A stretch of 64,000 bases of DNA from an uncultured Collinsella sp. (GTDB lineage Bacteria > Actinomycetota > Coriobacteriia > Coriobacteriales > Coriobacteriaceae), in assembly GCA_959606065.1 (NCBI GenBank), contig CAUHHV010000002.1, positions 56,575 through 120,574 of the forward strand. The letters run 5' to 3'. The notes under the pieces were generated by a model. It did no database searches. It was given only the letters and a program-made list of their open reading frames with translations, and had not been told where the DNA came from. This document shows positions 2,851-61,773 of the stretch, in pieces; within the stretch, counting starts at the first letter, position 1, and each line of letters opens with the position of its first letter. The translations under genes were made by a program, and so were the position numbers.

Positions 2851-5800
2851 TTACGCCTCCTTCTTGGTCGAAGCAACAGGGCTGGCAGCCACGGACGCAG
2901 CACCCGCAGCACCGCCCGCAATATCGAAGCGAGCGACATCCGCGGCGCTCGCGCGACCGGTCACAATGTCAAACGCCAGCTCCTCTGCCTGCGCATGCGT
3001 CTTACCGGCAGCCTCGCTCGCAGCGACAATCGCCAGCACACGCTCGTACTCGGTCGGAATGACCTTCACAAAGTGCTTGCTCATCGTCTCAAAGCTGTAG
3101 AGCAGCTTGATGCCGCGCGGGCTCTGCGTCGCGTCCACGTGCTCCTGGATGAGCTCGCGAATCTGCGCCAGCTCGCCGGCAGTCGGGGCCTTGAGCTCAA
3201 CGCTCTCGTGGTTCACGCGGGCATCGAGCGTGCCGTACTGGTCAAAAACATAAGCCACGCCACCCGTCATGCCGGCAGCGAAGTTCTGCCCGACCTCGCC
3301 CAGGATGAGCGCCAGGCCACCCGTCATGTACTCGCAACCGTGGTTGCCGCAACCCTCGACCACCACGGTGGCACCGGAGTTGCGTACGCCAAAGCGCTGG
3401 CCGGCCAGGCCGTTGATGAAGCCACGGCCGCTCGTGGCGCCAAAGAACGCAACGTTGCCCACGATGATGTTCTCGTCGAACTTGTAGGTCGCATGCGGAT
3501 TGGGGCGCACCGACACCTCGCCGCCCGAAAGGCCCTTGCCAAAGTAGTCGTTGGCGTCGCCGCACACGTTGAGCGTAATGCCGCGCGGCAGGAACGCGCC
3601 AAAACTCTGACCGGCTGAACCATCGCAATCGATGGTAATGGAGCCGGCGGGCAGGCCCTCGGGATGCGCCTTGGTCACCGCGTTGCCCAAGATGGTGCCG
3701 ACGCAGCGGTTGACGTTGGCGATATCGGCGCGGAAGCGTATCGGACGCAGGTGCGCACGGGCATCGGCCGTATAGGGCACAAACAACGTGGAGTCGAGCG
3801 TCTTGTCGAGCTCGCTGTCGGCAGCCATCTGCGGCAGGAAGTGACGACCGTCGGCACCCGGAATATGGGCACCAAACTCACAGGTCGCGCTCGCCAGCAC
3901 GGGCGACAGATCCAGCAGGTTAGCCTTGCGGTTCCCCGGGACCTCGATCTGGCGCAAGCACTCGGGATGGCCGACCATCTCGTCGACGGTGCGGAAGCCC
4001 AGGCTCGCCATGCCCTCGCGCAGTTGCTCGGCAACAAAGAGCATAAAGTGCTCGACGTGCTCTGGCTTGCCGCGGAAGCCGCGACGCAGGCGGCAGTTTT
4101 GCGTAGCGATGCCGGCGGGGCAGGTATCCTGCTGGCAGTCGCGCTGCATGAGGCAGCCCATCGAGATGAGCGGCATGGTCGCAAAGCCAAACTCCTCGGC
4201 GCCCAACAGGCAGGCGACAGCAACATCGGTGCCGTCCATGAGCTTGCCGTCGGCCTCGAGCACCACGCGCGAGCGCAGGCCGTTTTGCAGCAGCGTCTGC
4301 TGAGCCTCGGCAAGGCCAAGCTCCAGCGGCAGACCGGCGTGCCAGATCGAATCGCGCGCAGCGGCACCCGAGCCGCCATTGTGGCCGCTGATCAAAATCT
4401 TGTCGGCAGCACCCTTGGCAACACCAGTGGCGATGGTGCCGACACCAGCCTCGCTGACCAGCTTGACCGACACGCGCGCACCGGGGTTGGCGTTCTTAAG
4501 GTCGAAGATCAGCTCGGCCAGGTCCTCAATGGAGTAGATGTCGTGATGCGGCGGAGGCGAGATCAGGCCGATGCCGGGCGTGGACTGACGGACCTCGGCA
4601 ATCCAGGGGTAGACCTTCTTGCCGGGCAGGTGGCCACCCTCGCCGGGCTTGGCGCCCTGGGCCATCTTGATCTGAATCTCGAAGGCGCTGCACAGGTAGC
4701 GGCTCGTCACGCCAAAGCGCGCACTTGCCACCTGCTTGATCGCGGAGTTCTTGGAGTCACCGTTAGCCAGCGGGGTCTCGCGACGCGGATCCTCACCGCC
4801 CTCGCCCGAGTTGGAACGGCCGTGCAGGCGGTTCATGGCGATGGCCATGCACTCGTGTGCTTCCTTGCTGATGGAGCCGTACGACATGGCGCCGGTGTTA
4901 AAGCGGCGGACGATGTTGAGCGCGGACTCGACCTCGTCGAGCGAAACCGGCGTGCGGCCGCTGGCATCAAAGTCGAGCAAGTCGCGCAGACGCACGGTAC
5001 GGCCGGTGCGGTGCAGGCGGGCGCTGTACTCCTTAAAGGTGTCGTAGCTGTCCTCACGGCAGGCGGTCTGCAGCAGGTAGACGGTCTGGGGGTCGATGAG
5101 GTGTTCCTCGCCGCCGAGCGGGCGCCACTTGGTCAGGCCCAGCGTGGGCAGCTGATCGGGAGCCGGGCTCTTAAGGATAGCGAGCGCGGCGTCGTAGCGC
5201 TCGTTTTGCTCGCGTTCAACGTCCTCGACACCCATACCGCCCACACGGCTCACCGTGCCGGCAAAGTACGCGTTGACGAACTCCGGCGTAAAGCCCACGG
5301 CTTCGAAGATCTGCGCCGAATGGTAGCTCTGCACCGTGGAGATGCCCATCTTGGACATGATGGAGACGATGCCGGCGGTCGCAGCCTTGTTGTAGTTGGC
5401 GATGCCCTGCTCGGCCGTCACGTCCAGGTCGCCGCGTGCCGCCAGATCGCGGATGCACGCATGTGCGTTGTACGGATAGATGCCGCTCGCGGAGTAGCCC
5501 ACCAGTGCCGCAAAGTCGTGCGGGGACACGGCGTCACCGCACTCCACCACGATGTCGGCAAAAGTACGAACGCCGGCGCGGATCAGGTGGTTGTGCACGC
5601 AGCCCACGGCGAGCAGCGACGGCACGGGCACCTCGCCCGCAGCGGCACGATCGCTCAACACCACAATGTTCACGCCGTCGCGGACCGCAGCCTCAACGTC
5701 CTCGGCAAGCTGTTTGAGCGCAGCCTGCAGCGCGCCCTCGCCGGCATCGCGGCGGTAGACGGCACGGAAACGACGGGTCTTAAAGCCAACACGGTCGATG

Positions 5801-7548: not shown

Positions 7549-7732
7549 CGCGATCCTCCCCTAGATATTTAGACAGTCAGTTGAATAGGCATACTAGGAG
7601 CATCGCCGACCCGTTGTGTTTCCCACCCGTTTCGAAACAATCGCGTAACGCACGCCCTACGAGTGGACACCGCCGACCTCAAGGGCGACAACATAGGCCC
7701 CAAGTTCGGCCTGTAAGCTCACTGCTTCAAAC

Positions 7733-7950
7733 ATCTCAATCTGTAACAGTAAGACCCAATTTCGACGACTAACTGTTACAGATCAAGATGTTTTCGAGAG
7801 ACGGTTCCGAATGTCTCAATCTGTAACACGAAGGGTCAGTTTTGGCGGTCAGCTGTTACAGATCGAGATTTTCCATAGGACCATTTCTTCCTGTCTTGAT
7901 CTGTAACACCTAGACCCAATTTCCATCCCCAGTTGTTACAGATCAAGACA
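7733..7950 (+). repeat. Tandem array of three family-1 hairpins (units about 7733-7789, 7814-7869, 7892-7950; 17-bp stems ..TCTCAATCTGTAACA / TGTTACAGATCAAGA.., 22-24-nt loops), each followed by a short T run; lies in the mntH 5' leader
   Basis: Read directly. Loops 1 and 3 share GACCCAATTTC. Unit 3 has a perfect 17-bp stem. Confidence 0.7.
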
Positions 7951-8071
7951 TTTCGGCAACCCCCTTTCCCCACCCCATTCAAATACAACTATTTTGTTAG
8001 TCATAGTTAACTTTTGAGCCTAAAACGGGTATCCTTTGCGGCGTCAAACAAACGGCACACAGGAGCGCACC

Positions 8072-10343: not shown

Positions 10344-10410
10344 AGTTGCGGTGAAATAGAGACTGAATAGCCCCTCAAACAGGCAAAACAGTCCGTATTC
10401 CACCGCAACT
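10344..10410. repeat. Family-3 67-nt palindromic element (AGTTGCGGTGAAATA...TATTCCACCGCAACT)
   Basis: Perfect 10-bp terminal inverted repeat with partly paired inner arms. One of three 67-nt copies in the window. Confidence 0.65.
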
Positions 10411-11894: not shown

Positions 11895-11970
11895 TGGTAG
11901 CCCGTACCAGATTCGAACTGGTGATCTCCGCCTTGAGAGGGCGGCGTCCTAAACCGCTAGACGAACGGGC
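11895..11970 (-). tRNA. tRNA-Glu (anticodon CTC)
   Basis: Hand-folded cloverleaf: acceptor GCCCGT, anticodon stem CCGCC/GGCGG around loop CTCTCAA, T-loop GTTCGAATC, CCA encoded. Confidence 0.75.
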
Positions 11971-11988
11971 CATATGTAGCAAATGCAA

Positions 11989-12062
11989 TGGCTGGGATGG
12001 AGGGAGTCGAACCCCCATTGACGGAACCAGAATCCGCTGTCCTGCCATTAGACGACATCCCA
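11989..12062 (-). tRNA. tRNA-Gln (anticodon CTG)
   Basis: Hand-folded: acceptor TGGGATG/CATCCCA, anticodon loop TTCTGGT, T-loop GGTTCGACTCC, CCA encoded. Confidence 0.7.
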
Positions 12063-13979: not shown

Positions 13980-14585
13980 CTACCCCGCCTCGCGCATCCA
14001 GCGATCGAACGTCCCCACGCACACGCCCAGGCACTTTGCCGCCTGGCTGCGGGTAATATCGCCCGCCTCATAGCTATCGCGCACCAGCTCAAACTGAGGA
14101 GGGCACGGCTTGCGAGGTCGACCGAAACGGACCCCTCGCGCCCGCGCCGCTGCAATCCCCTCCGCCTGGCGCCGATGAATATTCTCGCGCTCCACCTGCG
14201 CCACGTAGCTCAGCAGTTGTAGCACAATATCGGCAATCAGGGTATTGGTCACATCCGGCGCGCCGCTGGCCCTGGCGCGCGTGTCAAGCAATGGCATGTC
14301 CAACACCACAATGGCAACCCCGAGCTCCTTGGTAATGCGTCGCCATTCCTCAAGAATCTCGGAGTAATTACGGCCAAGCCGGTCGATAGAAAGCACCACC
14401 AGCACGTCCCCGTCTCCCAGGATGTGCAGCAGCTCGCGATACCGCGGGCGATCGAAGTCCTTGCCGCTCGCATGGTCGGCATAAATATTCGCCGAGCCCA
14501 CGCCATAGGCGCCCAGCGCATCCAGCTGCCGATTTAGATTCTGATCGCGCGAACTCACCCGCGCATAACCATACACCGTCGCCAT
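13980..14585 (-). CDS. serine recombinase (resolvase/invertase family) with C-terminal HTH
   Basis: MATVYGYARVSSRDQNLNRQ... shows the catalytic Ser in the YARVSS motif and an HTH tail. Start trimmed to MATVYGY. Confidence 0.85.
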   Translation of the reverse strand: MATVYGYARVSSRDQNLNRQLDALGAYGVGSANIYADHASGKDFDRPRYRELLHILGDGDVLVVLSIDRLGRNYSEILEEWRRITKELGVAIVVLDMPLLDTRARASGAPDVTNTLIADIVLQLLSYVAQVERENIHRRQAEGIAAARARGVRFGRPRKPCPPQFELVRDSYEAGDITRSQAAKCLGVCVGTFDRWMREAG

Positions 14586-14606
14586 CTCATCCCCGCTTTC
14601 TTGTAA

Positions 14607-14647
14607 ACCTGCCAAAAAGGGACAGGTTTATTTTGGTAGGTTTTACC
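14607..14647. repeat. Family-4 41-nt motif ACCTGCCAAAAAGGGACAGGTTTATTTTGGTAGGTTTTACC, immediately upstream of the recombinase start
   Basis: 36/41 identical to 26701-26741, which lies upstream of secA. Confidence 0.55.
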
Positions 14648-17033: not shown

Positions 17034-17954
17034 CTACACGCGCAGGTAGCGGCGCATGGCGATGGCAGAACCAAAGAGACCGATAATCACGCCGACCAGA
17101 ATCAGCGCAGCATAGGTCACCAGGTAGTACTGCATCGGCAGGGCAAACGACATCCAGCCGATGCTCTCCTGCAGACGCGGAATCATCAGATTACGCAGCA
17201 GCTCCAGAACGCCGATGGAAAGCAGCGAGCCCAAAATGGCCTGCAGTACGCCCTCGGTGATAAACGGGCCACGAATGAAGCCGTTGCTGGCGCCGACCAG
17301 ACGCATAATCGCAATCTCACGACGACGCGCCGTGATGGACAGGCGAATCGTGTTGTTGATGAAGATGAATGCGATAAAGGTCAGAAGGCCAACGAGCACC
17401 ACGGCGGCGATGCGAATGTAGTTGGTCACCTGGAACAGGCGGCTCACTTCCTCCTGGCCGTACAGCACGCTCGCGTTGACGTCGCCGTCATCCGCGATCT
17501 TCTGGAAATCGGCATTCTTCTTGAGCTTCTCTGCCGTGCTCTCGACCTTGGACGGATCGTCCATCTCAATTGCAAACGAAGCCGGCAGCGGGTTCTGGCC
17601 ATCGAGCGCGCTCATGGTGGCGTCGGCGTTGCCCGACATCTTGCTCGTATACTCGGCCAGCGCGTCGTCCTTGTCCTTATAGGTAACGGACTTGACGTTA
17701 TTCCACGTCTTAAGCTCGGCCTCAAAAGCCTGAACATCGGCCTGATCGGCGTCATCACTAATGAACGCGTTGATGACAACCTGATCCTCGACGGTGCCGA
17801 TCACGGAGTTCAGCATCGCGGAGCCCATGATAAACAGGCCGATGATAAACAGCGAAAGGAAGATCGTGATGACGGCGCCGAGCGAGGTAGTCCAGTTACG
17901 GAAGAAGTGGCTGATTGCCTCTTTGAAGGAGTAGCCCACGTTAGTTGGTGCCAT
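17034..17954 (-). CDS. ftsX: cell division permease FtsX
   Basis: 306 aa with FtsX topology: TM1, an extracytoplasmic domain, then three C-terminal TM segments. Overlaps the ftsE stop. Confidence 0.85.
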   Translation of the reverse strand: MAPTNVGYSFKEAISHFFRNWTTSLGAVITIFLSLFIIGLFIMGSAMLNSVIGTVEDQVVINAFISDDADQADVQAFEAELKTWNNVKSVTYKDKDDALAEYTSKMSGNADATMSALDGQNPLPASFAIEMDDPSKVESTAEKLKKNADFQKIADDGDVNASVLYGQEEVSRLFQVTNYIRIAAVVLVGLLTFIAFIFINNTIRLSITARRREIAIMRLVGASNGFIRGPFITEGVLQAILGSLLSIGVLELLRNLMIPRLQESIGWMSFALPMQYYLVTYAALILVGVIIGLFGSAIAMRRYLRV

Positions 17955-19161
17955 AGTTGCCGTAACCTCCCCTCTCCTGGTCGCGGATAACGTGGCCGCC
18001 CTCGAGGGCGATCACGCGACGGTGCATGCTATCGACCATCTCGCGGTCGTGCGTGGCGACGATCACGGTGGTGCCGGTGCGGTTAATACGCTCGAGCAGC
18101 TTCATGATGCCCAGCGAGATCGCCGGGTCGAGGTTACCCGTGGGCTCGTCACAGATCAGCAGCGGCGGACGGTTGACCATAGCGCGGGCGACGGCAACGC
18201 GCTGCTGCTCGCCACCGGAAAGCTGGTCGGGCAGCGAGTCCATCTGATCGGCAAGACCGACCAGACGCAGCACCTCGGGCACCTGGCTGCGAATGACGCC
18301 CTTGGGCTTGCCGATGCACTGCAGGGCAAACGCCACGTTTTCGTAGGCGGTCTTTTGCGGCAGAAGCTTAAAGTCCTGGAACACGGCACCAATCTGACGA
18401 CGCAGGAATGGGACCTTGCGGTTCTTGATCTTCATGAGGTCCTGGCCGGCGACCAAAATACGACCGCTTGTGGGCTTGACGTCGCGGTTGAGCGTCGACA
18501 GCAGCGTGGTCTTGCCCGAGCCGGAGTGACCGACCAAAAAGACGAACTCGCCCGGATAGATCTCGATGTTAATGTCGTCGAGTGCAGGCTTGTTGGGCTG
18601 TGCCGGATAGATCTTGGTGACATGCTCCATAAGGATGACGGGCTCGACACCGGCCTGCTTGGCCATCTTCTTGCGGCTGGCCTGCGGATCGATGGGCGCA
18701 AACACCGACGTAAAATCGGGGTTGTTGAGCGCGTTATCGAGGCTTGCGACCTCGGCTGCCTGATCGCTCTCGACCACCGGGGCAGCAGGCTGCGTGGGAT
18801 CGGGAATAGCGGCAAAGAGGCCGGACTGCGCAGGCTGAGGAGCCGGTGTCGCAGGAGCCATGGGGTCGGGAATGCCGGCCATGCTAGGCTGCGGCGCGGC
18901 GGCGCCAGCCTGAGGCTGCTCCACGCGAGCGGTCACAGCCTGAACGGGCTCAAAACCCGCCGTGCCGGAAAGCGCGACATCGCTGGTGGGATTGTAGGCA
19001 AAGGGATCGGATGCCGGCTGTGCCTGATCTGCCGGCTGAGCGGGAGCCTGAGCAACAGGCTGGCCCTCTGAATCCGGAGTGGCGAAACGACTGCCCTGGA
19101 CGCCTGTCTGCGTCTTGGGGGCATCATCGCCCGCACCGGAGGTACGGAAGTGGTTACCCAC
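17941..19161 (-). CDS. ftsE: cell division ATP-binding protein FtsE; full ORF carries an in-frame 165-aa Pro/Ala/Gln-rich N-terminal extension (core starts at MAKQAGVEPV, about 18666)
   Basis: Walker A GHSGSGKTT, ABC signature LSGGEQQR, Walker B LLICDEP. The N-terminal 165 aa is low complexity. Confidence 0.85.
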   Translation of the reverse strand: MGNHFRTSGAGDDAPKTQTGVQGSRFATPDSEGQPVAQAPAQPADQAQPASDPFAYNPTSDVALSGTAGFEPVQAVTARVEQPQAGAAAPQPSMAGIPDPMAPATPAPQPAQSGLFAAIPDPTQPAAPVVESDQAAEVASLDNALNNPDFTSVFAPIDPQASRKKMAKQAGVEPVILMEHVTKIYPAQPNKPALDDINIEIYPGEFVFLVGHSGSGKTTLLSTLNRDVKPTSGRILVAGQDLMKIKNRKVPFLRRQIGAVFQDFKLLPQKTAYENVAFALQCIGKPKGVIRSQVPEVLRLVGLADQMDSLPDQLSGGEQQRVAVARAMVNRPPLLICDEPTGNLDPAISLGIMKLLERINRTGTTVIVATHDREMVDSMHRRVIALEGGHVIRDQERGGYGNYGTN

Positions 19162-19264
19162 TGGTGCTCCTTATCGTCGTGCGTTTAAACTACATGAGCG
19201 CTTTGTATTTTAGCAGCATTAGCTTTACTGCACATAAGAAGCATGGCGGGGTTTGGGTCTCACC

Positions 19265-19392
19265 GGCCGGGCGCAGGGTTACCTCCCAAATCGTCCTCGC
19301 GCATGGCCTGCATTTGTCCTGCTCCTGCGGAGCTGCGGACAAACGCCGGCCTGCGCTGCGGAAAGATTTGGGAGGTAACCCTGCGCCCGGCC
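19265..19392. repeat. 128-nt palindromic MITE-like element with perfect 28-bp terminal inverted repeats (GGCCGGGCGCAGGGTTACCTCCCAAATC) and a partly self-complementary interior
   Basis: Read directly. It explains the mirrored pseudo-ORFs 19190..19441 and 19243..19425 in the track. Confidence 0.75.
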
Positions 19393-19611
19393 TGCGGCTA
19401 CTATGGGGCCGACGCACCAACTTGAGATGCTGCGCATACAAAGTTGGAAGGGTCTGAATTGCACTTTGTTGGGATGGGCCCGTTTCCCCATGGGAACTTT
19501 GCTTGGCAGGACTCTAATTTTAATTCAGCATAAACAGGGGCGCCCTCTTTGAGGACGCCCCTGTTCTAGCTTGTTTGCGGTTGTCGAAGCGATGTTTTGC
19601 CTCGTCTTGCC

Positions 19612-20553
19612 TTATGCCAAGAACCCCTTGGTGGTCGCCACGATGTTGGCGGCGTCCAGGCCGTACTTGTGCAGGAGCTCGGCACCCGGGCCGGACTCGC
19701 CGAAGGTGTCGTTGACGCCAATCTTCTTGAGCGGCGTCGGGCACTGCTCGCACAGAACATCGGCAACGGCGCTGCCCAGGCCACCGATCACGGAGTGCTC
19801 CTCGACGGTCACGACGTGGCCGGTCTTGGTGGCGCTCTTGACGATCAGGTCGGCATCGATGGGCTTGATGGTGTGCATGTTGATGACCTCGGCATCGATG
19901 CCCTCGGCAGCAAGCTGCTCAGCGGCCTCGAGAGCCTCGCCGACCATCAGACCGCAAGCGATGATGGTGACGTCGGCGCCCTCGCGCATGACGATGCCCT
20001 TGCCCACCTCGAACTTGTAGGTCTCGGGGTCGTTGATGACCGGCGAGGCCAGACGGGCAAAGCGCATGTACACGGGGCCATCGCACTCGTAGGCGGCGCG
20101 CGTCACGGCGCGGGCCTCCACGTCGTCGGCGGGAACAATCACGGTCATGCCGGGGATAACGCGCATGAGGGCGATATCCTCGCAGCACTGGTGCGTGGCG
20201 CCATCCTCGCCCACCGAGATACCGGCGTGCGTGGCACCAATCTTAACGTTAAGGTGCGGGTAGCCGATGGAATTGCGGACCTGCTCAAAGGCGCGGCCAG
20301 CGGCAAACATGGCAAAGCTGCTCGCGAAGGCAACGCGGCCGGTGGTCGCGATACCAGCGGCAACACCCATCAGGTTGCTCTCGGCGATGCCCACATCGAA
20401 GAAGCGGTCGGGGCAGGCTGCCTTGAACTTGCCGGTCTGCGTGGCGGCGGCCAGGTCGGCGTCGAGGACCACAAAGTCATCGTGCTCGTTGGCGAGCTCG
20501 ACGAGGGCCTCGCCGTAGCTTACGCGCGTGGCGATTTTCTTGACGTCTGCCAT
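19612..20553 (-). CDS. tktB: transketolase, C-terminal (pyrimidine-binding) subunit
   Basis: MADVKKIATRVSYGEALVELANEHDD... Start trimmed. Directly follows the N-terminal subunit with a 1-nt gap. Confidence 0.85.
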   Translation of the reverse strand: MADVKKIATRVSYGEALVELANEHDDFVVLDADLAAATQTGKFKAACPDRFFDVGIAESNLMGVAAGIATTGRVAFASSFAMFAAGRAFEQVRNSIGYPHLNVKIGATHAGISVGEDGATHQCCEDIALMRVIPGMTVIVPADDVEARAVTRAAYECDGPVYMRFARLASPVINDPETYKFEVGKGIVMREGADVTIIACGLMVGEALEAAEQLAAEGIDAEVINMHTIKPIDADLIVKSATKTGHVVTVEEHSVIGGLGSAVADVLCEQCPTPLKKIGVNDTFGESGPGAELLHKYGLDAANIVATTKGFLA

Positions 20554-20554
20554 C

Positions 20555-21385
20555 CTAGAGCTCCTCTCCGGCGGCCGTGAGCTCTGCCATGGCCTGCTCA
20601 AACTGTTCATCGTTGGGGGCCTTGCCGTGCCAACCCACCTGGTTCTCCATAAAGGAAACGCCCTTGCCCTTGGTGGTCTCGGCGATGATGGCGGTCGGCT
20701 GACCCTTGGTGGCGCGGGCCTCGGCAAAGGCGGCGCGGATCTGATCGAAATCGTTGCCGTCGGCGAGCTCCACCACGTGGAACTTGAAGGCGCGGAACTT
20801 GTCGGCGAGCGGCATGGGGTCGTTGACCTCCTCGACGGGGCCGTCGATCTGCAGGCCGTTGTGGTCGACGATCACGCAGAGGTTGTCAAGCTGCTGGTTG
20901 CCGGCAAACATGGCGGCCTCCCAAACCTGGCCCTCCTCGCTCTCGCCGTCGCCCAGCAGGGCGTAGGTGCGATAGTCGTCGCCCCAGTGCTTGGCGGCAA
21001 CGGCCATGCCCACGGCGGCGGAGATGCCCTGGCCGAGCGAACCGGTGGACATATCGACGCCCGGGGTGTCGTTCATGTTGGGGTGACCCTGCAGGTGGCT
21101 GCCGATGTGGCGCAGCGTCTCGAGATCCTCCTTGGGGAAGAATCCGCGCTCGGCGAGCACAGCGTACAGACCAGGCGCGCAATGACCCTTGGAAAGCACG
21201 AAGCGATCGCGGTCGGCCTTGCGGGGGTCGGCCGGGTCGACGTTCATTTCCTCAAAGTACAGATAGGTCATGATGTCGGCAGCGCCGAGCGAACCGCCCG
21301 GATGGCCGGACTTGGCAGCGTGCACGCCGGTGACGATGCCCTTCCTTACCTCGTTGGCAACCTTTTTGAGCTCTTCGTCGCTCAT
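20555..21385 (-). CDS. tktA: transketolase, N-terminal (TPP-binding) subunit
   Basis: ...GHPGGSLGAADIMTYLY...LSKGHCAP...GSLGQG is the transketolase TPP-binding motif. Confidence 0.9.
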   Translation of the reverse strand: MSDEELKKVANEVRKGIVTGVHAAKSGHPGGSLGAADIMTYLYFEEMNVDPADPRKADRDRFVLSKGHCAPGLYAVLAERGFFPKEDLETLRHIGSHLQGHPNMNDTPGVDMSTGSLGQGISAAVGMAVAAKHWGDDYRTYALLGDGESEEGQVWEAAMFAGNQQLDNLCVIVDHNGLQIDGPVEEVNDPMPLADKFRAFKFHVVELADGNDFDQIRAAFAEARATKGQPTAIIAETTKGKGVSFMENQVGWHGKAPNDEQFEQAMAELTAAGEEL

Positions 21386-27303: not shown

Positions 27304-27489
27304 GGTAGGACTCCTTATTAGTCAGGCGCTGGTTACCGATCAGCGCATAAGGCGTCTTGGTTTCCGACCAAGACAACAAACTCGACTATGGTACCACGGC
27401 GCCGCGTGTCCCACAAAAGGTTCACGGTCTTTTCGGCACAACACGAGCTGGACCTTAAATATCAACTTCATCCGAACACTCCCCCACAT

Positions 27490-33329: not shown

Positions 33330-34055
33330 AGGGCGGTCGTACTCGCCCTGCACACGGGGATGCGAATCGGCGAGGTCTGCGGCCTTCGGTGGTGCGATGT
33401 GGATTTCGAGACGGGCCTGATCTCGATCAGACACTCGGTGGCGTACGCGAAGGGAATGGGTTCGTTCATCAAGGACACCAAGACCCATGACGCCAGGGGT
33501 ATCCCCATCGACCCGGTCGGCCTACTCCCCTTCCTGAAGGAGACCCACGAGATCGACTGCGGAAAGCTGCGCTTGCGCGGCCTTACCGGGGCGGTCGAGA
33601 TCGGGGACTGCTACATCCTGTCGGAGCCGGGCGCGACCTTCGCGACGACAAGCTATATCCGCAGGGCGTTCAAGACGTTCTCGGAGACCAACGGCCTCAT
33701 GGGCACCAACGATGAGCTGATCACGTTCCACGGCCTTCGCCACACGTTCGCAACGCAGTGGATCCGCCAAGGCGGCGATATCAAGGCGCTCCAATCGATC
33801 CTCGGCCACAAGGACGCCATGGCGACGCTCAACGTCTACGCCGACATCGAGCCCATCTCCAAAATCCATAACATGCTGCGCGCCACGCCGTGCCTTTGGC
33901 GCGGGCACCTCGGGCCGAGGGTCGATCCGGGTCCCATGTTCCAACAGAGGATCCAGGAGTCCATCGAGACGCTCCAGGCGTTCGGCTACGGCATCACCGA
34001 GCCGGACGACCGAAATATCGCCATACGCGACGTGAAGACGAACAGTTGGCTCTAG
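33330..34055 (+). pseudogene. N-terminally truncated tyrosine recombinase/integrase (catalytic domain only)
   Basis: Begins at box I (LALHTGMRIGEVCGLRWCDVD) and includes HGLRHTFAT (HxxR) and the LNVYAD Tyr region. The core-binding domain is missing. It starts in frame directly after the TAG stop of the HTH gene. Confidence 0.7.
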
Positions 34056-34451
34056 CTCACCGAGTACGCGGCAGTGCTGGGCCCATCCCAACTGAGGTCA
34101 CGGTGGTCCGATAGGGGCGCCGCCCGCGGCATGCGCCGCGGAGCGGTATCCCCTACCGAAGGGCGGGGATGCCCTCCGCTTCCAGTTCGGAATCAGCCGT
34201 CGGAGGCGTTCGGCTGACTGCGGGAACGGCCTGTCCGCTCAATGTGTTCGGCTGAGATCGGAAATCAACCCAACACGAGCCGGACACGCGCCAGACGGCT
34301 CTTCCCCGTGCGGCCTTCCCCCTTACGCTCATGTTGCAGGCATGTAACGCCGCAGCGAGCGCGCCTTTTTTGCGCCAGACAGGTACAATGATGAACACTG
34401 TACCGTAGCGGAGCGCCCCGCGCGCGCCGCAATCACGCGAAAGGGTTTCCC

Positions 34452-52308: not shown

Positions 52309-52439
52309 TGAAATGTAAAACAAAGCCGTTCCCTGATGCCCAAGATCGCCTTGAAATGAGAAGGCATAGACCTTGGGGTCATGCCTTCGAAATTGAAAGG
52401 CGAGGTTGGGCATCAGGGGGCGGCGACTTTTACATTTCA
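52309..52439. repeat. 131-nt extended imperfect palindrome in the map-infA spacer (outer 12-bp stem TGAAATGTAAAA / TTTTACATTTCA, inner 13-bp stem CCCTGATGCCCAA / TTGGGCATCAGGG, plus further stems)
   Basis: Read directly. The outer arm overlaps the last codons and stop of map. Not related to the other repeat families. Confidence 0.7.
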
Positions 52440-58671: not shown

Positions 58672-58912
58672 TGTTCACTCCTTCTTGGGGTTTTAAGCAC
58701 GGGGCGTGGCCACGATGGGTTGTCCTCGTGCCTCCTGGCTGCATCCGCGCCGCTCATGGCATTTCGCGGTTTGGACTCGACGCAGCAGGAGCCGACAAAA
58801 CAATCGGTACTATACGCGCATTGGGTGCGTATTTCCAGAAAAACCTCGTCTGCCTGCACAACTCCACAACTCCCCCGCACAAATTGATCCCTAGGGCACG
58901 GAGGAAAACAGC

Positions 58913-58979
58913 AGTTGCGGTGAGATAGGGACCGTTTGACGGCTTAACAGGCTTTAACAGTCCGTATTTCACCGCAACT
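58913..58979. repeat. Family-3 67-nt palindromic element (AGTTGCGGTGAGATAGGGACCG...CAGTCCGTATTTCACCGCAACT), upstream of rplE
   Basis: Same length and termini as 10344-10410 and 61707-61773. Confidence 0.65.
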
Positions 58980-58996
58980 CATGTATGGGGATGCGA

Positions 58997-61706: not shown

Positions 61707-61773
61707 AGTTGCGGTGGAATAGTTCCTGAAACGGCCTATTTGGCGGCTAAACAGGAACTATTCCACCGCAACT
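61707..61773. repeat. Family-3 67-nt palindromic element; this copy has a perfect 22-bp stem (AGTTGCGGTGGAATAGTTCCTG / CAGGAACTATTCCACCGCAACT)
   Basis: Read directly. Lies between convergent yqeC and the hydantoinase. Confidence 0.7.

Follow-up and report, generated by a model that had tools for sequence, protein, structure and literature searches.

Extragenic palindromes and terminator hairpins that are reused behind genes are known from the REP, ERIC and TRIT sequences. REP/BIME/REPIN elements of proteobacteria, which are mobilised by RAYT proteins, are units of 20–40 nt with a conserved stem and a flanking GTAG, present in tens to hundreds of copies. ERIC (~127 bp) and Correia/NEMIS sequences are imperfect palindromes of ~100–150 bp that resemble miniature inverted-repeat transposable elements (MITEs), lie in transcribed intergenic DNA, have interior variants and affect mRNA processing. 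The U-tract-less ('I-shaped') terminators of Actinobacteria and the TRIT hairpins of M. tuberculosis are GC-rich, follow soon after stop codons with no U-run, and place a sequence-related motif behind many genes. Collinsella is among the most prevalent of human gut actinobacteria and, to our knowledge, almost nothing is known about its non-coding elements. Here we describe a long hairpin at 19265–19392 of a 64-kb stretch of DNA from a Collinsella of the C. aerofaciens group (the window, that is, the whole stretch analysed), which lies between the transketolase (tkt) operon and ftsE. Inherited vertically, the hairpin belongs to a small and apparently undescribed family of long structured palindromes that are dispersed in Collinsella and related Coriobacteriaceae, the architecture of this family being absent from Rfam 15 and from the literature searched. 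Our tentative interpretation, to which we give slightly less than an even chance, is that the tkt–ftsE copy would be a displaced paralogue of a terminator-proximal 3'-end hairpin family and would insulate tkt from ftsEX.

The likeness to REP/BIME/REPIN elements lies in their being extragenic palindromes at gene 3' ends that fold in mRNA, are long retained at orthologous sites and are targets of insertion sequences. In the Collinsella family, however, the stems are locus-specific, only an internal junction is conserved, the copies number a handful and the unit is ~130 nt long; rather than a conserved unit with a flanking tetranucleotide in many copies, we found conservation of the junction and of a 4-nt CGCA flank only. 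ERIC and Correia/NEMIS sequences are similar in size, in their imperfect palindromic form and in having inserted or replaced internal segments, but they keep their sequence and terminal repeats between copies and have TA target duplications, whereas the Collinsella arms are unshared, there is no duplication and the orientation to the upstream gene is fixed. With I-shaped terminators and TRIT the family shares a GC-rich, U-less hairpin past the stop codon and the reuse of a motif; it differs in its length of ~130 nt in three tiers, which is far more than termination needs, and in its invariant asymmetric junction, and the window copy differs further in that it is not beside a stop codon and has the opposite orientation. 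By analogy only, integron attC sites are comparable in structure-based recognition, conserved unpaired bases, variable terminal structure, position behind genes and fixed orientation. The Collinsella copies, in contrast, follow housekeeping genes whose chromosomal positions are conserved, and neither a cassette array nor an integrase accompanies them; an assignment to attC was rejected since the RYYYAAC/GTTRRRY core sites are absent, the ends being GG.../...CC flanked by CGCA and GGNNAG. What appears to be new is the set of locus-specific 28-bp helices around an invariant junction, with nested boundaries and modular interiors.

Structure and covariation of the hairpin family

The original prediction, made from the letters of the window, had described a perfect 28-bp inverted repeat around a largely self-complementary interior, and both features are borne out. 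GGCCGGGCGCAGGGTTACCTCCCAAATC at 19265–19292 is 100% complementary to 19365–19392, so that 28-nt arms enclose 72 nt, and this interior folds as a hairpin in its own right with small internal loops and a GCA triloop at its tip (Table 1). Even with three mismatches allowed, the 64-kb window holds no further match to the arms, and an arm match of this kind arose in 0/100 dinucleotide shuffles. The whole 148-nt region folds as a single rod on the plus strand (-111.9 kcal/mol, z -12.6) and on the minus strand (-115.2 kcal/mol, z -13.1), and no shuffle folded as well on either.

The proposal that the structure is strongly selected also stands. The 101 distinct alleles from the tkt–ftsE and pfk loci have 98.0% of their cells paired, and both sides have changed in 21 of 43 pairs, a value matched by none of 500 shuffles and far from those of slid registers. 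Compensatory arm alleles include CCTCCC/GGGAGG against CTCTCC/GGAGAG and CTTTCC/GGAAAG, GCGC against GCAC/GTGC, and GGGC against GCGC/GCGC. The junction that separates the outer helix from the interior behaves differently: TTTCCGCAG and CGAGGAC are invariant among the tkt–ftsE alleles of relatives, and the search pattern that gave the 101 alleles left the junction unspecified. Nucleotide diversity (pi) in the set found through the arms, which is the only set in which junction invariance is free of ascertainment, is 0–0.014 for the junction, 0.05–0.09 for the outer arms and 0.1–0.3 for the flanks.

Further copies lie at other loci. A genome scan that specified the inner arm sequence only gave 119 matches, nearly all in C. 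aerofaciens or Collinsella sp. A second locus lies directly after pfk and before a gene for an XRE-type regulator, with arms GGAGGCCCCAGGGCTTACCTCCCAAATC and an interior of 65 nt; a third, recovered by a profile search, lies after asd, ~7 kb away, and has 28-nt arms of a different sequence, GGCGGGGACTGGGCTTGGTTTTCAGAAC, together with the same junction motifs and an apex that hardly differs from the one in the window's 72-nt allele. When metagenomes were scanned with a pattern anchored on the junction, 120 stretches came back, 70 of which form the hairpin; the other 50, whose arms are unpaired, were discarded as chance matches. A covariance model, R1, then added further members, and the loci now extend to the 3' ends of genes for a P-type ATPase, a MIP channel, a class IV aminotransferase, PEP carboxylase and a GHMP kinase. 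The element is thus repeated, as had been proposed, with copies at at least seven other gene 3' ends besides tkt–ftsE, and model R1 and an exact search pattern are now available for the family. At the GHMP-kinase locus the element is present in three lineages, whose copies differ widely in arms and apex type, which indicates that it is old at this site.

Among 24 diverse members, both partners have changed in 27 of the 35 tested pairs, single positions showing as many as five pair types; the share of paired cells is 97.6%, compared with 28–51% in slid registers. Read on the strand that contains TCCGCAG (the s-strand, which is the minus strand at tkt–ftsE), the 5' side consists of CGCA, outer helix P1 (28 bp, starting with GG and closed by an invariant C-G), NN-UCC-GCA-G, P2 (4–5 bp), P3 and the apex; the 3' side continues with CAUG, P2', C-GA-GGA-C, P1' and GG(A/U)(C/G)AG. 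A member has one or two inner helices and, at its tip, a C-GNA-G triloop. The apex is of type A, CGCGAAGCG or CACGAAGUG, or of type B, GUCC-GCA-GCUCC-GNA-GGAGC-A-GGAC. P1 is 28 bp throughout, with a locus-specific sequence and full covariation (arm examples, each of 28 nt and differing by locus, begin GGCCGGGCGCAGGG, GGAGGCCCCAGGGC, GGCGGGGACTGGGC and GGGACCCGATGGGT); every helix covaries, whereas the junction, CAUG loop and closing pairs are conserved. Model R1 scores the two strands at 127.7 and 53.3 bits, so the element is asymmetric.

Neither nhmmer nor the covariance model found a second family member in the window, their other matches being unrelated hairpins. Rfam 15 has no family over the element, either at E<=10 in the window or at gathering thresholds, and the only matches of seven other members, to eukaryotic microRNA-precursor models that represent generic long hairpins, were below threshold. 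The published Collinsella-1 motif does not match, and a literature search on Collinsella hairpins, terminators and inverted repeats found nothing relevant.

The tkt–ftsE locus and the case for mobility

An exact-protein look-up of FtsX provided a sample that is independent of the element: ten gut-metagenome contigs with the same gene order, all of which (10/10) carry the hairpin at the same place. It also occupies the orthologous site in ~90 genome or metagenome contigs that were selected by pattern and carry the tkt–ftsE locus. Two unrelated interiors are found there, one of 67 nt in the majority, C. aerofaciens ATCC 25986 (L129) among them, and one of 72 nt, the window's, in the minority. 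Some alleles are mosaics that combine arms from two different alleles, which places recombination breakpoints inside the element. Beyond this group, a relative with 91% FtsX identity lacks the element and has an unrelated hairpin with 31-nt arms in the same spacer, relatives at 89%, 79% and 77% have no long hairpin in the spacer, and one at 75% has yet another unrelated hairpin. To judge from these spacers, the element is a lineage-specific gain. Among relatives without the family member, unrelated long hairpins (arms of 31, 22 and 23 nt) fill the same slots in L130 (2035–2123), L136 (2119–2177) and L137/L138 (3604–3700); by the covariance model they are not family members, and the intergenic slots seem to need or attract a long hairpin irrespective of its sequence.

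The original prediction suggested, as one of two readings, a recently mobile MITE. A transposase would then bind its 28-bp terminal inverted repeats, and the perfection of the repeats, the absence of the element from the same spacer at FtsX identities of 91% or less and the presence of other copies in the same genomes all speak for it. The arms, however, are locus-specific and almost wholly different between loci, leaving no common transposase-binding sequence. No target-site duplication is seen at tkt–ftsE (...GCCGCA/GGTGAGA...), pfk (...ACCGCA/GATGAGA...) or asd (...ACCGCA/GGACAGA...): in none of these are the flanks direct repeats, CCGCA and GGTGA at tkt–ftsE included. Near-identical copies at non-orthologous sites and polymorphism between strains are likewise missing, with one copy in the 64 kb, the hairpin fixed in the FtsX-selected contigs, and a single orthologous site occupied in ~90 genomes or contigs by diverged, compensated alleles that are old. 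The homology to the pfk copy does not stop at the repeat but runs on for ~34 nt past one arm. No autonomous element with the same ends was found in the window or the fetched flanks, and viral contigs gave 0 matches to the full pattern; a 16-mer had 33 matches there, all without a partner arm and dismissed as chance. The prediction had expected a local hairpin to be single-copy, absent from the same locus in close relatives and free of target-site duplications; the duplications are indeed absent, but the hairpin is present at this locus in close relatives and is not single-copy, its other copies being diverged paralogues at conserved sites rather than identical transposed ones. We regard recent mobilisation as largely refuted and highly improbable.

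A second hairpin family in the same genomes, AGTTGCGGTGRAATAG...CTATTYCACCGCAACT (full form AGTTGCGGTG(A/G)AATAG...CTATT(T/C)CACCGCAACT, ~65–75 nt), is a better MITE or REP candidate. Copies lie at 10344–10410, 58908–58984 and 61707–61773 of the window, at ~4370–4450 in L001/L010 and at 3760–3830 in L137/L138, and the family shows presence/absence polymorphism between strains in the tkt–ftsE and pfk–xre spacers, behaving like a mobile MITE/REP-type element.

The element had also been proposed to supply the ftsEX promoter. The ftsE promoter is instead predicted 52 nt downstream of the hairpin from conservation of an extended -10, TGCTAAAAT, and the leader that follows it, both of which are conserved in relatives without the hairpin, while a strict sigma-70 scan was empty. 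In relatives with and without the hairpin the -10 hexamer is kept as TAnnAT (TAAAAT, TAGAAT, TATGAT, TAAGAT). The same scan found no promoter-like site inside the hairpin, whose interior is a GC-rich near-palindrome, or near it; a dedicated promoter in the conserved 5' flank TAGT(T/A)(A/G) was considered and dropped, as it does not fit TAnnnT. The annotation of the window is corrected on both counts, the element being neither a mobile element nor the ftsEX promoter.

A further possibility is an inverton, in which recombination between the arms would flip the 72-nt segment and alter ftsEX expression. Inverted repeats around a short segment, a resolvase-family gene 4.6 kb away and a reversed pfk copy in L027 would suit such a switch. 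Against it, 0/91 copies are inverted at tkt–ftsE and 1 of ~61 at pfk, no promoter-like sequence lies inside the repeat and the ftsE promoter is placed outside it; the resolvase gene also occurs in the hairpin-less relatives L131 and L132 and does not co-vary with presence of the hairpin. We give this explanation almost no weight.

Position behind genes, exchange of parts and possible roles

A census of 199 instances with paired arms showed a consistent relationship to genes. In 104 of these, the stop codon of a long convergent open reading frame (ORF) lies 8–30 nt beyond the 3' end of the s-strand; the ORFs are real genes, namely pfk (60), asd (23), GHMP kinase (7), P-type ATPase (7), class IV aminotransferase (4) and PEP carboxylase (3). 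The orientation is shared by 103 of the 104 gene-proximal copies, and 91 of the remaining 95 instances come from the tkt–ftsE locus. The usual member thus lies directly past a stop codon in a fixed orientation, and its GUCCUCG...CUGCGGA strand is the one present in the mRNA of the upstream gene. Behind pfk and asd nothing else resembling a terminator can be seen. Of ~61 copies at the pfk locus only one, at 189–347 in L027, has its asymmetric interior reversed with respect to pfk.

Typical members would act in mRNA as a U-tract-less intrinsic terminator combined with a protective hairpin at the 3' end, and the junction would be recognised by some factor. The window copy would fold in any tkt read-through RNA, and its most likely effect would be that of a second block or insulator, keeping tkt transcription out of the ftsEX promoter. 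The data show the structure, the family, the positions of its members, the fixation at tkt–ftsE and the position of the promoter; that the element is transcribed, that it terminates transcription or stabilises transcripts, and that it has a binding partner are inferences. The earlier suggestion that it stands between two transcription units, which it might separate, holds, with the amendment that both units are on the minus strand. Should the family act as RNA, it would represent a common system of 3'-end control or protection for genes of glycolysis and amino-acid metabolism.

Several observations weigh against this interpretation. The tkt operon has its own canonical terminator, so a second is not obviously needed, and tkt–ftsE is the single exceptional locus at which the element is reversed with respect to the upstream gene. 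No U-rich tail follows the hairpin on either strand, the sequence 3' of it being GGUGAGACC on the minus strand and UGCGGCUAC on the plus strand. Sites with G-U and with A-C mismatches are equally frequent on the two strands (15 vs 17 and 11 vs 11), so the pairing constraint cannot be assigned to RNA or DNA, or to one strand. A plain terminator leaves the invariant junction and the exchange of interiors between loci unexplained, and the invariance of the junction in distant members is in part a matter of ascertainment, CGCAGG, TCCGCAG and CGAGGAC having been imposed by the metagenome pattern. In addition, the hairpin is not listed in the terminator scan, and an intrinsic terminator would be expected a short distance past the stop on the coding strand, whereas the tkt–ftsE copy is 220 nt from the stop, has another terminator ahead of it and is reversed.

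The conserved junction, CAUG loop and closing pairs amid covarying helices, together with the strand asymmetry of model R1, could also reflect a structured RNA, either stand-alone or derived from a 3' untranslated region, with the junction as a site of protein binding or processing (for example by RNase III on the 28-bp helix). A plus-strand RNA at tkt–ftsE, starting divergently from the AT-rich ftsE promoter region, could restore the usual family orientation, that of the 103 gene-proximal copies, and a candidate -10 recognised by eye, TGTATTTT, lies ~50 nt upstream on that strand. The promoter scan was nevertheless empty and no promoter is conserved across the three Collinsella loci; there is neither a terminator tail nor an Rfam match, and the mismatch types do not settle the strand. 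We consider such an RNA doubtful, decidedly on the unlikely side. Inspection by eye gave no fit to a K-turn (the second base after the GCA bulge is not A), to 6S RNA (there is no large central bubble), to SRP RNA or to a retron msd (there is no reverse transcriptase gene nearby).

Comparison of the tkt–ftsE and pfk copies points to the origin of the former. Homology in the 5' flank extends ~34 nt past the arm (23/34 identical; 9/2000 shuffles as good) and only ~8 nt past the 3' arm, so the duplicated unit was not bounded by the inverted repeat. At pfk the corresponding upstream stretch forms the 5' half of an additional outer stem (GACGAATAGCCTCGGC), which repeats the pfk stop-codon region in inverted orientation. 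This suggests that the ftsE copy derived from the pfk copy by a duplication not bounded by the inverted repeat, and the window copy was probably copied from a pfk-locus member in an ancestor of the C. aerofaciens group.

Arms and interiors have evolved separately. Copies behind the aminotransferase and PEP carboxylase genes have identical interiors (53/53) and arms that are nearly random with respect to each other; arms identical to the window's enclose the 67-nt interior in L040, and those of L003 are 25/28 like the window's, yet its 67-nt interior and the 72-nt interior are unrelated. In L137 and L138 an unrelated hairpin stands in place of the whole pfk hairpin, the exchange running precisely from the conserved CATC boundary to the conserved TGCG boundary. 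A boundary of the form CCGCA, palindrome, G(A)GGAC recurs at three nested levels: the base of P1, the base of P2 and the type B apex.

These properties fit a palindrome maintained as DNA, in which the arms would form a hairpin or cruciform in single-stranded or supercoiled DNA and be kept complementary by arm-to-arm correction (template switching, or mismatch repair in the hairpin) rather than by selection on RNA. A structure-specific enzyme (an HUH/RAYT-like nuclease or a recombinase) or microhomology copying at the junction would swap interiors and create hotspots of rearrangement and insertion. C-GNA-G triloops, such as GCGAAGC, form very stable DNA mini-hairpins. Besides the separate histories of arms and interiors, the swap of the whole hairpin at pfk, the nested boundaries and the outer stem made from the pfk stop-codon region, this explanation would accommodate the chimeric copies in L117 and L286, the inverted pfk copy in L027, the symmetry of G-U and A-C mismatch sites, and an integrase-associated element that, in two independent alleles (L034 and L120), adjoins the hairpin at one and the same position. 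A candidate enzyme was found beside none of the copies, however, and the low copy number and the conservation of positions between species mean that any such activity is rare. The fixed orientation, and the fact that stop codons lie 8–30 nt away, speak for a connection with transcripts, G-U variants reach higher frequencies than A-C variants on the s-strand, and the chimeric contigs may be assembly artefacts at the shared interior. On balance we consider maintenance as DNA unlikely, if credible; were it correct, the family would offer a tractable case for the upkeep, exchange and use in rearrangement or insertion of long palindromes.

The chimeric contigs join an ftsE arm to a pfk arm (L117, 3009–3167) and an aminotransferase arm to a PEP carboxylase arm (L286, 582–722). 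Either two family members have undergone inversion with each other, or metagenomes or metagenome-assembled genomes (MAGs) were misassembled where the interior is shared, and chimeric MAG contigs arising at the repeats of this family are flagged here. L034 and L120 carry different alleles; in both, foreign DNA sets in 7–8 nt past the 3' arm and the contigs then end. The foreign end sequence, GGTTGATTTCCGATCTCAGCCGAACAC (L034, 2636–2690; L120, 5131–5184), is also present at 34244–34270 (minus strand) of the window, where it adjoins a tyrosine recombinase ORF (phage integrase family; 33360–34055, plus strand). The unit is probably an integrative element able to insert beside the hairpin.

The invariant junction and the interior exchange might be joined in a more speculative proposal, which we also think unlikely. 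The hairpins would form a modular 'hairpin-in-hairpin' class in which the junction CCGCA^G...C^GAGGAC, with up to three nested levels and C-GNA-G triloops, is recognised or cut by a dedicated structure-specific protein that moves or swaps interior cassettes between locus-specific outer helices at gene 3' ends; alternatively, in Coriobacteriaceae the junction could be bound by a protein whose targets are the 3' ends of mRNAs from central metabolism (pfk, asd, thrB-like, ppc, ilvE-like).

Gene context and other features of the window

The neighbouring genes, placed by Pfam matches and by gene calls on related contigs, are all on the minus strand, in the order secA, prfB, yitT, split transketolase, ftsE, ftsX, RNase R and resolvase. 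The hairpin begins 220 nt past the tktC stop codon, beyond the tkt terminator, and ends 104 nt ahead of the ftsE start codon. The spacer, read on the minus strand, comprises the tktC stop, the terminator (19565–19533), ~140 nt that are partly conserved, the hairpin, 52 nt, the extended -10, and a 5' leader of ~45–50 nt that leads to a GTG start codon. The T-run after the tkt terminator is clearer in other alleles, with TTTTT in L003 and L005.

Table 1. Positions in the window of the parts of the hairpin and of neighbouring features.
Feature	Position	Strand	Basis or remark
P1 outer helix, 5' arm (28 nt)	19365–19392	minus (s-strand)	perfect complement of 19265–19292; covaries within the locus and across the family
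Junction, 5' half, UU-UCC-GCA-G = TTTCCGCAG	19356–19364	minus	nearly invariant in 101 alleles; lowest diversity of the element
Interior cassette: P2, P3 and type B apex GUCC-GCA-GCUCC-GCA-GGAGC-A-GGAC	19300–19355	minus	folds; 72-nt allele
Apical triloop, GCA on minus, TGC on plus, closed by GCUCC/GGAGC	19326–19328		sequence and folds
Junction, 3' half, C-GA-GGA-C (CGAGGAC)	19293–19299	minus	invariant in the arm-ascertained set
P1 outer helix, 3' arm	19265–19292	minus	complementarity and covariation
5' flank homologous to the pfk-locus copy (...TAGTAGCCGCA before the arm)	19393–19426	minus	alignment of flank consensus
Terminator hairpin of the tkt operon (not part of the element)	19533–19565	minus	inverted repeat I2; conserved
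Extended -10 of the predicted ftsE promoter, TGCTAAAAT (not part of the element)	19207–19216	minus	conservation in relatives
Split transketolase, N subunit	20555–21385	minus	Pfam and related-contig calls
Split transketolase, C-subunit gene (tktC)	19612–20553	minus	Pfam; 313 aa on related contigs
ftsE, ABC ATPase with N-terminal extension	17941–19161	minus	Pfam and related-contig gene calls
ftsX	17034–17954	minus	Pfam and related-contig gene calls
Resolvase-family gene	13980–14615		4.6 kb from the hairpin

The ftsE leader at 19162–19216 (minus strand), GCGCTCATGTAGTTTAAACGCACGACGA(T/A)AAGGAGCACCAGTG, is, together with the extended -10, invariant or nearly so down to 75% FtsX identity and far more conserved than the remaining spacer; it may be a regulatory leader for ftsEX. 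FtsE itself has 406 aa, with a low-complexity N-terminal extension of ~190 residues ahead of the ABC domain that is retained in relatives (371–413 aa). In one strain (L002, 3410–4793) the tkt–ftsE spacer is 1384 nt long and contains an extra ORF of 196 aa on the opposite strand, with no Pfam match, inserted between the tkt terminator and the hairpin. The two mirrored small ORFs that had been noted over the element are of a kind that a palindrome yields by itself; a coding role was rejected, as they have no Pfam support and the interior lengths of 65, 67, 72 and 74 nt among relatives break any frame.

Elsewhere in the window, the only Rfam matches above threshold are two tRNA genes and an L31-Coriobacteria ribosomal-protein leader (11898–12062, 27311–27346). 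Long imperfect inverted repeats lie at 1227–1345 (55-nt arms, 82% complementarity) and 52325–52424 (33-nt arms, 82%), both unrelated to the hairpin family by the covariance model. Finally, at least five copies of a ~20-nt unit with TGTTACAGATC(A/G)AGA cluster in alternating orientation at 7729–7953, an arrangement that has the look of multiple operators.

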